A stretch of 64,000 nt of DNA, from positions 129,337 through 193,336 of the forward strand of contig CAYSBJ010000003.1 in assembly GCA_964429275.1 (NCBI GenBank), written 5' to 3'. Numbering within the stretch: the stretch's first letter is position 1; the number at the start of each line of letters is the position of its first letter. Positions 17,188-18,206 of the stretch are shown piece by piece. The notes under the pieces were generated by a model. It was not told where the DNA came from, searched no databases, and was given only the letters and a program-made list of their open reading frames with translations. The translations under genes and the position numbers were made by a program. This stretch comes from an uncultured Pseudomonadota bacterium (lineage in GTDB: Bacteria; Babelota; Babeliae; Babelales; JAUPTZ01).

Positions 17188-17226
17188 CACTCCCGAACTA
17201 TGTACTATGGTTCGGGAGTGTTTTTA
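17188..17226 (+). terminator. Rho-independent terminator after gyrB
   Basis: CACTCCCGAAC (loop) GTTCGGGAGTG, followed by TTTTT. Confidence 0.7.
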
Positions 17227-17230
17227 TATG

Positions 17231-17423
17231 CATCCGTGATTGCGGCGGTGAGCATAGCGTAACCGGAAGCAATCCAGATAAAATGATTGCTTCTGTGAAA
17301 AATTGGATTGTTCCGCCACTGCCCCAAAGGGGCCTAAAGCGTGAATCGCCATACGGCGGCTCGTCATTTCATTTCTCGGAATGACGAGTATGGTGATATC
17401 CTCCCTGGACCATTAGAGTTACG
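17231..17423. repeat. Repeat-family insertion flanked by a 30-bp direct duplication
   Basis: The segment starts with CATCCG, like the other copies. It contains GGAAGCAATCCA, GGATTGTTCCGCC and CCCCAAAGGGGCCTAAAGCGTGA motifs. It is flanked by TGTAC(T/C)ATGGTTC(G/C)GGAGTGTTTTTATATG at 17201..17230 and 17424..17453. Confidence 0.6.
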
Positions 17424-17450
17424 TGTACCATGGTTCCGGAGTGTTTTTAT

Positions 17451-18206
17451 ATGAAGAAACTTTTCAAAAGCTGGCTTTCCTCTGTGTGTCATCTTTTTTC
17501 TTTCCGCTATCTTAACGCAGTAGGGCGCTCGTTATTATGTGCTTTGCCGTGTATTGCTATTTCGTTGGGTATTTTTGGGGCACTCTGTAGAGTGGCTTGT
17601 TTGAATTGGCCACACATATCACTTTTTGCGCGGCAAGTAATGCATTTAGTGCCGCCACTGGTGGCAATGGTAGCCTCTCCTTTTTATGTGCCGTTCCTTG
17701 TTTCTTGTGTAAAAGCAGAAGAGGGAGAATCTACCGTAAATTGGTTGGCATCTATATGGTGGTCCTGCCTTGTCTACGGTATTATCGTGGGGCTCTTGAG
17801 TGGCTTATATTGGGTGTGTACTGAAGGTACCGTTGAGATGCTTTTATGGTTCGTTGCACTTATGGTGGTGTGTGCACCATTCATTTTGATTAAAATATTT
17901 GCGTTTCCTATCGCGAGTATCGCGGCAGTGTTTGCACCAATGAGCCATGCAACATCGCGGCAATTGTGGCGGCATGCGCGCGTAATGACTTTCTATGAAC
18001 TCGGCGGTATCGCCGGTATTTTTCTTTTGAGCTTACCGCTGTCATACGCCTCTTTCCACATAGCAGATTTGCTGCAGCATTATGGGGTAGTTGCCCAGTT
18101 GGGATCATATATGATTATTCATGCGATTAATATTCTGAGTTGGGAGGTTTGTTGGGTTCTTTCGATGGTGTTTTACCAACAGCGAAAATCAGCCTACATT
18201 GCGTGA
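17451..18206 (+). CDS. Hypothetical polytopic membrane protein
   Basis: The ORF runs 17430..18206. The likely start is the ATG at 17451 (MKKLFKSWLSS), because the upstream codons lie inside the duplicated terminator hairpin. It has about 6 TM segments and no recognised family. Confidence 0.5.
   Translation: MKKLFKSWLSSVCHLFSFRYLNAVGRSLLCALPCIAISLGIFGALCRVACLNWPHISLFARQVMHLVPPLVAMVASPFYVPFLVSCVKAEEGESTVNWLASIWWSCLVYGIIVGLLSGLYWVCTEGTVEMLLWFVALMVVCAPFILIKIFAFPIASIAAVFAPMSHATSRQLWRHARVMTFYELGGIAGIFLLSLPLSYASFHIADLLQHYGVVAQLGSYMIIHAINILSWEVCWVLSMVFYQQRKSAYIA

Follow-up and report, generated by a model that had tools for sequence, protein, structure and literature searches.

A lineage-specific insertion of CGTC-tagged repeat DNA with a duplicated terminator segment and start codon downstream of gyrB in an uncultured Dependentiae bacterium

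Introduction

Palindromic repeats that carry a CGTC tag are abundant, and their mode of spread is unknown. The family is described as dRS3/NTS in Neisseria, as RPE-4/RPE-6 in Rickettsia and as SRM elsewhere, together with the Ssn GIY-YIG nuclease (PMC3733652, PMC11893778). Its unit consists of the CGTC tag at the 5' end, a palindrome beginning with AT and a CC(A) tail. The repeats "apparently lack a dedicated transposase", and whether new copies still form was left open (PMC3733652). Ssn proteins form the CDD family cd10448 and SsnA cuts single-stranded DNA a few nucleotides upstream of the tag (PMC3733652, PMC11893778), while the arrangement NTS-ssnA-NTS looks like an insertion sequence (PMC11893778). 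Long, variable target duplications made without a transposase have also been documented (PMC2853133), and insertion with long target duplication was described by Nobusato et al. 2000 and by Furuta, Abe and Kobayashi 2010 (PMC2853133).

Here we describe a locus of an uncultured Dependentiae (TM6) bacterium at which repeat DNA separates gyrB from the next gene and is bracketed by a 30-nt direct repeat. The analysis covered a stretch of 64 kb, referred to below as the window. The insertion is real and datable, and it is a one-off scar that does not represent the usual footprint of the repeat family. The locus offers a clean, dated filled/empty pair with both junctions intact, from a phylum for which we saw no report of the family in PMC3733652 and PMC11893778.

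Results

A 30-nt direct repeat brackets a unique segment

The spacer between gyrB and the following membrane-protein gene contains two near-identical 30-nt sequences, arranged as follows.

14757..17153, plus strand: gyrB coding sequence; the open reading frame opens at 14718, and the 798-aa product from 14757 has the length called in relatives
17187..17226, plus strand: gyrB intrinsic terminator found by a terminator scan, a 16-pair hairpin (17187-17221) and then a T-run
17201..17230, plus strand: left repeat copy, with hairpin loop, 3' arm, T-run, GGAG and ATG
17228..17239, plus strand: former start codon, now orphaned, in a three-codon ORF read from the sequence as ATG CAT CCG TGA
17231..17423, plus strand: segment absent from relatives, a mosaic of palindromic repeat modules
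17424..17453, plus strand: right repeat copy, with GGAG and ATG for the downstream gene
17451..18206, plus strand: membrane-protein gene (251 aa, no Pfam family), starting at the ATG of the right copy

The duplication claimed in an earlier note on this DNA is present: the left copy (TGTACTATGGTTCGGGAGTGTTTTTATATG) and the right copy (TGTACCATGGTTCCGGAGTGTTTTTATATG) are identical at 28 of 30 positions, lie at a spacing of 223 and bracket 193 bp. The longest exact run common to both is 16 nt, and the stretch from GGAG through ATG (GGAGTGTTTTTATATG) is identical at 16/16 positions. Searched as a pattern, the 30-mer had only these two sites in the window, and no match of any kind appeared in 100 dinucleotide-preserving shuffles. 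Among the local direct repeats of at least 20 nt in the window, no other pair brackets a unique segment: the remaining ones belong to the 36.4-37.5 kb repeat cluster, to paralogous genes or to one short coding repeat (25430-25508).

The two copies are divided between the neighbouring genes

The 798-aa gyrB orthologues of three relatives (L081, L083 and L088) carry HATPase_c, DNA_gyraseB, Toprim and DNA_gyraseB_C domains. The gyrB terminator hairpin folds as RNA at -25.7 kcal/mol (z -6.8) and is conserved in five lineages, with 5 pairs kept via changes on both sides. For the region of the right copy, folding is no stronger than in shuffled sequence (z 0.03). All five database homologues of the membrane protein are also 251 aa long and cover 100% of it, and its orthologues lie directly 3' of gyrB in every relative examined. 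The roles that the earlier note had assigned to the copies held up: the hairpin scan and a reading of the sequence agree that the first copy is the loop, 3' arm and T-run of the gyrB terminator and ends in the ATG of the three-codon ORF, and the length and full coverage of the homologues agree that the second ends in the ATG of 17451-18206.

The left copy makes up the rest of a strong gyrB terminator. The right copy provides the ribosome-binding site (RBS) and ATG, which no strong hairpin now encloses. Wherever translation initiation does not need the sequence, the right copy has decayed since the insertion. The insertion is harmless because the duplication leaves a full-strength gyrB terminator on the left and the RBS, spacer and ATG on the right. 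In this way a compact genome copes with an insertion even where the spacer consists almost wholly of terminator and translation start, each neighbour getting its own copy. A promoter scan of the plus strand from 16900 to 17800 found no sigma-70-like site; Rfam gave only tRNAs in the window and only chance-level matches at the gyrB-downstream locus.

Relatives carry an empty site with a single copy

A sister lineage with about 92% nucleotide identity to the source genome is represented by assemblies L088-L095. The gyrB-to-gene spacer of this lineage is 74 bp, identical in 8 independent assemblies, and contains a single 30-mer; its length equals the window spacer of 297 minus the spacing of 223. 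Three more distant relatives (L081, L083 and L086) have spacers of 71-73 bp with one 30-mer copy and no insert. Using BLAST, positions 5975-6003 of L088 (29 nt) aligned to both 17202-17230 and 17425-17453. The terminator hairpins of empty sites fold at -23.6 and -23.7 kcal/mol, like the left hairpin of the window. The empty site with one 30-mer that had been predicted was therefore found, in the 8 sister assemblies and in all three of these more distant relatives, and the element must have inserted between terminator and start codon, with the 30-mer as the duplicated target.

Both flanks are colinear with the sister lineage at 92.2% identity for gyrB and 92.5% for the downstream gene. The insertion occurred after the split from the sister, at about 8% nucleotide divergence, and both its polarity and the duplication follow directly from the filled and empty sites. 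The left copy matches the single sister copy at 29/30 positions. Position 1 of the repeat is T in both window copies and C in the sister, a pattern that fits duplication on the window's own branch.

In a GyrB scan of species-representative genomes, none of the matches listed was closer than 62% identity. Two metagenome scans, one for a 21-mer specific to the insert and one for the 3' end of gyrB, gave no match, and neither did exact-protein lookups of the membrane protein (both possible starts), P0001 and GyrB.

The insert is built from modules of a CGTC-tagged repeat family

The pattern CGTCWTTGCG-N8-24-GCAATC, allowing up to 2 substitutions, had 13 matches in the window as compared to 1.67 expected and a maximum of 6 in 100 shuffles. 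The published degenerate SRM pattern HGTCWYN(0-2)YYVSBRHN(0-5)WNVSBRGN(0-2)RNCYNB had no match on either strand of the window because the stem differs, beginning TTGCGAG where the pattern requires pyrimidines. The reference locus of the family in the window and the modules of the insert are listed here.

36834..37241, no strand assigned: family reference locus, a GIY-YIG gene between two CGTC-type units with tags at the outer ends
36834-36875, plus strand, and 37206-37241, minus strand: the CGTC-type units flanking this gene, from the motif scan
36886-37182, minus strand: Ssn-type GIY-YIG gene, 98 aa, single domain (Pfam GIY-YIG, E 3e-16)
17235..17277, plus strand: CGTC-type unit CGTGATTGCG...GAAGCAATCCAG with the tag mutated to CGTG, beginning 4 nt inside the left junction
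17312..17358, plus strand: CCGCC...GGCGG module, common to copies at 34838, 36434 and 1054 (reverse complement), with local alignments at z 4.5-6.1 and 0/300 shuffles as good
17359..17389, plus strand: palindrome CTCGTCATT...AATGACGAG, tagged with CGTCATT on both strands and folding as a hairpin

Three modules of the insert are significantly similar to the repeat family of the window (z 4.5-6.5, with 0/300 shuffles as good). The complete CGTC-type unit spans 17235-17274, the stretch 17262-17285 resembles the reverse complement of 37206-37228 and of 21388-21407 (z 5.4-6.5), and the palindrome at 17359-17389 resembles the reverse complement of 36836-36861 (z 6.0). The claim that the bracketed segment carries repeat-family motifs was thus confirmed, with three modules including one CGTC-type unit; the added statement that it begins with CATCCG like other copies was true of two copies only (34836 and 36432), and six bases are weak evidence.

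The whole segment 17231-17423 folds into a string of hairpins (z -5.2). It is non-coding, the only overlapping ORFs being 40-47 aa on the minus strand, and it has no transposase, integrase or other mobility gene. BLAST found no full-length second copy or donor of the insert in about 1 Mb, and three insert pieces had no pattern match in 1.1 Mb. The strict ends of the insert (CATCCG... and ...GTTACG) are not inverted repeats. An insert end near 17392 would place CGTGATTGCG at one boundary and the reverse complement of CGGAATGACG at the other, with 8/10 positions identical between them.

The 64-kb window has no transposase gene adjoining the repeats, and the only gene associated with them is that for the 98-aa GIY-YIG protein. 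This protein has over 7000 homologues; those listed are about 95-110 aa and occur in Berkiella, Tisiphia, Sphingomonas and others, taxa that are among those named as SRM-rich (PMC11893778). The best match to a solved structure was the UPF0213 protein 1zg2 (E 8.8e-5). By likeness of motif, module and gene, the insert can be placed in an NTS/SRM-like CGTC-tagged family that flanks an Ssn-type GIY-YIG gene.

The duplication may cover the whole terminator module

The well-preserved duplication is exactly 30 nt, and sequence similarity appears to continue to the left of the right copy in a much more diverged form.

17393..17412, plus strand: putative decayed copy of the 5' arm and of the conserved motif that precedes the hairpin (TGATATCCTCCCTGGACCAT)

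In targeted tests this stretch was complementary to the ancestral 3' arm (p ~0.003) and similar to the L081-type arm (p <1/3000) and to the window's own left arm (p ~0.047). The decayed arm (GGACCAT) matches the L081-type arm at 17/19 positions with one gap and the window's own left arm weakly. When the 60 nt to the left of each 30-mer were aligned locally without restriction, the result was not significant (p 0.2-0.28). The duplication spans at least 30 nt, from loop to ATG, and probably extends to about 48 nt, the whole terminator module. If it does, the foreign part is approximately 17231-17392 and the insert is 160-193 bp. The left extension resembles the L081-type arm more closely than the window's own arm, which could mean that it has another origin.

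Other insertions of the family lack flanking repeats

Four other insertions were tested, at the radA stop codon (34796-34997), at 21385-21477, at 976-1054 and an independent one in L087, a distant relative in which the family inserted in the same gyrB terminator. None had a flanking direct repeat above chance (p 0.5-0.6). The proposal that other insertions would show flanking duplications of similar length therefore failed in 4/4 cases, and long duplication is not a hallmark of how the family inserts. There are three further lineage-specific repeat gains within the same 64 kb, indicating that the family was recently active here.

A rule that insert ends always lie a few nucleotides outside the CGTC tags was considered and rejected, as the tags at the radA site are ~24-28 nt from the junctions.

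Discussion

We consider it fairly probable that the locus arose by a single insertion with long target duplication, through break-and-fill-in or template switching, and does not carry the fixed footprint of a transposase. We infer that insertion and duplication were one event, which would have put 160-193 bp of CGTC-tagged palindromic repeat DNA right after the ATG following the gyrB terminator and duplicated the adjoining target. As for how the breaks arose, the likeliest route would be that the two strands broke at points tens of nucleotides from each other, either in the flanks of the GC-rich hairpin, which are AT-rich and melt easily, or in its loop; the fragment would then have been joined, and fill-in would have closed the single-stranded gaps. 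Equivalently, a replicating 3' end would have come off its template after the ATG, copied a repeat cluster at an ectopic site and returned to the template further upstream. Junction microhomology is at most 2-4 nt. The sequence gives nothing to tell staggered breaks from template switching, and a single event does not suffice to establish a mechanism. The earlier note had proposed a long target-site duplication or a repair or recombination scar: insertion with a duplicated target is borne out by the empty sites, and a scar fits better than a transposase duplication. Its suggestion that the locus gives a direct view of the insertion mechanism must be narrowed to a view of one event, since the other insertions lack duplications.

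A more specific reading, tentative and in our judgement rather doubtful, is that the foreign part (~17231-17392) is a non-autonomous element bounded by CGTC-type units with their tags at its two outer ends, as at 36834-37241, that was mobilised by the Ssn-type GIY-YIG nuclease. The left junction would lie 4 nt and the right junction a few nucleotides outside the tags, matching the "few nucleotides upstream" offset of SsnA, and nicks in the single-stranded AT-rich flanks of the extruded terminator hairpin would explain a whole-hairpin duplication of ~48 nt. If true, this would be the first filled/empty-site evidence known to us for ongoing transposition of NTS/CGTC-REP/RPE repeats, and it would give a lead to the long-sought enzyme that mobilises them.

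The repeat could instead be a canonical target-site duplication, left by a dedicated transposase whose cuts always lie about 30 nt from each other; the 193 bp would then be a non-autonomous derivative. IS1630 of Mycoplasma fermentans, a member of the IS30 family, would be the model, and its targets are reportedly terminator-like inverted repeats. The target duplications that it makes are long and variable, at 19-26 bp (PMC2853133). At our locus target sequence likewise stands as a clean direct repeat on either side of the insert, with CGTC-like tags near the outer ends of the foreign part (17235 and 17388). However, IS1630 is autonomous, with a transposase and terminal inverted repeats, and duplicates its target at every insertion, whereas the family described here has only the 98-aa GIY-YIG gene and no transposase gene beside its repeats in 64 kb, its four other insertions lack a flanking repeat, and the insert is a rearranged mosaic without a second copy. 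We regard this explanation as unlikely.

Two independent steps are also improbable. Slippage on TATG, which is found at both boundaries of the duplicated segment (17199-17202 and 17227-17230), would first have made a 28-nt tandem duplication, and the repeat DNA would later have inserted exactly at the junction, in keeping with the family's insertions elsewhere without long duplications. The insertion would have had to strike the single junction nucleotide of the 28-nt duplication, and the tandem duplication alone occurs in no relative examined.

The resemblance of the decayed 5' arm to the L081-type arm, noted above, would be accounted for if the right-hand terminator copy had been imported by recombination with a diverged relative that carried the repeat mosaic upstream of its own terminator, leaving two alleles side by side. 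Against this, both 30-mers have the T that is absent from the sister, the downstream gene is no more diverged from the sister than gyrB is, and repeats between gyrB and its terminator were seen in no relative. We give this origin little credence.

It is very unlikely that the insert and both repeats are ancestral and were removed from the relatives when the repeats recombined with each other. Direct repeats of 30-50 bp lying 190 bp apart are prone to deletion, and the 2/30 divergence between the copies is comparable to the window-sister distance, but precise loss would be needed in at least 4 separate lineages (the sister, L081, L083 and L086), and the T shared at position 1 argues for duplication on the window's branch. 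An assembly artefact is hardly credible. The locus does come from a metagenome assembly, and lookups found no second, independent assembly of exactly this locus, but the copies differ at two positions, their longest exact shared run of 16 nt is shorter, we assume, than assembler k-mers, and identity to the sister is uniform along both colinear flanks.

Insertion with a duplicated target, as we favour here, can be set beside further described systems. Like the REP/BIME systems (RAYT, IS200/IS605-type), the window combines hairpin repeats with a small nuclease of a kind that acts on single-stranded hairpin DNA; REP/BIME insertions favour hairpins and the vicinity of terminators, and REPs themselves serve as insertion targets. 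REP/BIME systems employ HUH tyrosine transposases and are not known to duplicate their target, and no HUH transposase gene was seen adjoining the window repeats.

The NTS, SRM and RPE repeats resemble those of the window in their units. The NTS (CGTCATTCCCGCG..GCGGGAATC) and the window unit (CGTCATTGCGAG..GCAATCCA) share CGTCATT, a palindrome and AATCC(A). In both, units occur in pairs and clusters, a GIY-YIG gene for about 95 aa has units on both sides (NTS-ssnA-NTS, PMC11893778), and some copies lie in frame inside genes, the example in the window being 21385-21477. The stem sequence of the window units differs, and in the published accounts (PMC3733652, PMC11893778) we saw no report of the family in Dependentiae, of filled/empty-site evidence or of target duplication.

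In the form of its scar the locus resembles the cases of Nobusato and Furuta, in which two direct repeats flank an insert and both align to one sequence in the empty genome, the insert lacks a transposase or integrase, the repeats are tens of base pairs long, variable and nearly identical, and a break-based origin was proposed. Those cases involve restriction-modification genes and kilobase inserts and were collected with a threshold of >30 bp. In the window the cargo is instead 160-193 bp of non-coding palindromic repeats, and the target is a terminator together with a start codon.

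A terminator-derived direct repeat flanks a lineage-specific insertion downstream of gyrB

The two 30-mers that the earlier note had described downstream of gyrB were recovered at 17201-17230 (left copy) and 17424-17453 (right copy), identical at 28 of 30 positions and offset by 223 nt. A degenerate form of the 30-mer had no further occurrence in the window and matched none of 100 dinucleotide-preserving shuffles. gyrB ends at 17153, and a terminator scan detected a hairpin of 16 pairs (17187-17221; fold -25.7 kcal/mol, z -6.8) that precedes a TTTTT run. The roles assigned to the two copies held up. 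The left copy is part of the gyrB terminator and runs from the final two bases of the 5' arm through loop, 3' arm and T-run to an ATG that now opens the short ORF ATG CAT CCG TGA; the ATG closing the right copy starts a 251-aa membrane-protein gene. This protein had no Pfam match; all five of its database homologues, one carrying the name Candidatus Dependentiae, are 251 aa and align over their full length.

Comparison loci were obtained from exact-protein lookups of homologues and covered four distances: a sister lineage with ~92% nucleotide identity to the window (eight independent Logan assemblies, L088-L095), L081 (74% protein identity), L083 (56%), and L086 and L087 (38-40%). GyrB was 62% identical to the closest species-representative relative among the matches listed. 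Synteny in the relatives' loci comprised dksA-like, deaminase, gyrB, membrane protein, acyltransferase and VWA genes. The gyrB-to-gene spacer is 297 nt in the window, and subtracting one repeat period (223) predicts 74 nt. The sister-lineage spacer was exactly 74 nt and identical in all eight assemblies, with a single copy, CGTACTATGGTTCGGGAGTGTTTTTATATG, leading directly into AAGAAA, confirming that relatives without the insert carry one 30-mer. By BLAST, one 29-nt stretch of L088 aligned with both window copies. Spacers in L081, L083 and L086 were 73, 71 and 73 nt; all three contain a single hairpin, a T-run and the ATG. Parsimony strongly favours one gain on the window's branch over four precise losses, establishing the polarity of the insertion. 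Position 1 of the repeat is T in both window copies and C in the sister, also assigning the duplication to the window's branch; agreement with the sister's single copy is 29/30 for the left copy and 27/30 for the right.

A further difference was seen nearby. The window lacks a 268-290-aa gene that every relative has between the membrane-protein and acyltransferase genes, with 87 bp (18256-18342) standing in place of 701 bp in L088 (6806-7506).

Extent of the duplication and its effect on the terminator

An unrestricted alignment of the flanks left of both 30-mers was not significant. The 40 nt 5' of the right copy contain TGATATCCTCCCTGGACCAT, which resembles the motif ATGATACACTCC plus the 5' arm. 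ATGATACACTCC lies just upstream of the stem and was invariant in 5/5 lineages, and the remaining stem co-varies. The TGATATCCTCCCTGGACCAT region matched an L081-type arm at 17/19 positions with one gap (p <1/3000), was complementary to the ancestral 3' arm (p ~0.003) and matched the window's own left arm at p ~0.047. The simplest reading of these sequences is duplication of the entire terminator module (~17183-17230, ~48 nt). Where unconstrained, the right copy would later have decayed, through about four substitutions, one indel and, in the loop, an insertion of 11-12 nt, all upstream of the right 30-mer. Within 17424-17437, 2 of 14 positions differ between the copies, and GGAG through ATG is identical at 16/16. 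Recombination bringing in the right terminator copy is a live alternative, as the decayed arm is closer to the L081-type arm than to the window's own.

In all relatives the GGAG before the membrane-protein gene sits in the terminator 3' arm and the T-run abuts the ATG; in five lineages (window, L081, L083, L086 and L088) the gene's likely ribosome-binding site falls within this 3' arm. The left-copy hairpin (-25.7 kcal/mol) is as strong as those of empty sites (-23.6 and -23.7), and folding of the right-copy region did not exceed that of shuffles (z 0.03). In the relatives the terminator overlaps the translation start; the event has thus separated the two, which plausibly explains why it was tolerated.

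The insert belongs to a CGTC-tagged repeat family

No second copy of the 193-bp insert (17231-17423) was found across the 1.1 Mb of sequence compared. It does carry repeat-family sequence, as had been claimed, with three stretches like the window's dispersed repeats (z 4.5-6.5, 0/300 shuffles), and folds as a string of hairpins (z -5.2). The family's oriented unit in the window is CGTCATTGCGAG, a variable stretch, then G(C/A)AGCAATCCA; units occur mostly in pairs, with an additional module, CATCCGCCGCC...GGCGG. A motif composed for the unit had 13 matches in the window against 1.67 expected, one of them inside the insert (17235-17274), starting 4 nt inward of the left junction. Sequence 3' of the tRNA at 11751-11822 is unlike in window (11831-12011) and sister (L088 1114-1218); the window's stretch holds CCGCC/GGCGG-type module sequences and is not a clean insertion but a variable patch of repeats.

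On sequence grounds the family was identified as a known kind. Its unit shares its anatomy with CGTC-tagged REPs (Di Nocera et al.), which include Neisseria dRS3 and Rickettsia RPE-4 and RPE-6 (PMC3733652), and resembles the NTS repeat (NTS/SRM, Chenal et al.), CGTCATTCCCGCGMAVGCGGGAATCYRG (PMC11893778). The published degenerate SRM pattern matched none of the window's units, indicating that these are a sequence variant of the family. NTS/SRM repeats flank ssnA, encoding a GIY-YIG nuclease (~94 aa). On single-stranded DNA this enzyme binds the hairpin and cleaves a few nt upstream of the tag, the CGTC end of the unit (PMC11893778). The window has a comparable gene:

36886-37182, minus strand, single-domain GIY-YIG gene (98 aa), between two units with tags outermost

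Its protein has >7000 homologues (~95-110 aa among the matches listed) and is 62-68% identical to ~95-aa proteins of Berkiella, Tisiphia and Sphingomonas. Set against the best listed GyrB identity of 62%, this suggests that the putative nuclease and repeat pair spread horizontally. Comparison with the sister at the radA locus shows that one unit pair of 118 bp (L096 4547-4664) has grown in the window into a 1070-bp array (36389-37458) of four unit pairs plus the GIY-YIG gene.

The gene following the second VWA gene also carries, at its 5' end, an in-frame CGTC-type unit pair with tags inward (21385-21477, MLCMQFSWIASSLRSSQKRLSPSRHCGRSAAIHM...), similar to Rickettsia palindromic elements within coding sequences. 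The pair is in frame in the sister too, in a version shorter by 60 bp, and is absent from L081 and L083.

Long duplication is not usual for the family

A family insertion of ~200 bp (34796-34997) lies precisely at the radA stop codon and alters RadA's last residues relative to the sister lineage. L087 has an independent ~170-bp insertion with a family unit (1795-1990) inside the same gyrB terminator hairpin, parting its two arms without a long duplication. Flanking direct repeats did not exceed chance at the radA insertion, the L087 insertion, 21385-21477 or 976-1054 (p 0.5-0.6), whereas the same test at the gyrB site scored 50 against a null of 13. The expectation of similar repeats around other family insertions therefore failed at all four sites. 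The only other long local repeat in the window is a perfect 32-mer (36817-36848 and 37277-37308) that flanks the GIY-YIG cassette within the repeat array, and unequal recombination accounts for it just as well.

Measured against the sister, the window has three clean insertions of its own (17230, 34795 and 25733), and each sits 9-14 nt past a terminator stem, right behind the T-run. Given the 70-85-bp spacers in this genome, this placement may reflect selection instead of targeting. The segment at 25734-27933 (2.2 kb, absent in the sister) begins directly behind the T-run and encodes two hypothetical ORFs of 278 and 437 aa on the minus strand; an imperfect 14-nt repeat (GCCCTTTTTTCTTA and GCCCTTTTCTTTTA, p ~0.07) is present at its junctions.

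Mechanism and comparison with known events

The feature downstream of gyrB is real and consists of one lineage-specific insertion of family DNA plus duplication of the adjoining target; we infer that both arose in a single event. Breakage of the strands tens of nt apart around the hairpin, with the gaps then filled in, would produce this arrangement; so would a switch of template and re-entry further upstream. With its left junction 4 nt outside a tag, the insert makes a cut-and-insert model involving Ssn attractive, but that model is speculative and fails at the radA site. The hope that the site gives a direct view of the insertion mechanism was not sustained: the long duplication is a one-off, a variant within an already known class of events, and does not stand for the family's general mechanism. 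The two favoured routes, breakage with fill-in and template switching, correspond to what has been termed 'insertion with long target duplication', a class described for restriction-modification genes by comparing genomes (PMC2853133), and the event is only loosely comparable to IS1630, with its 19-26-bp duplications (PMC2853133).
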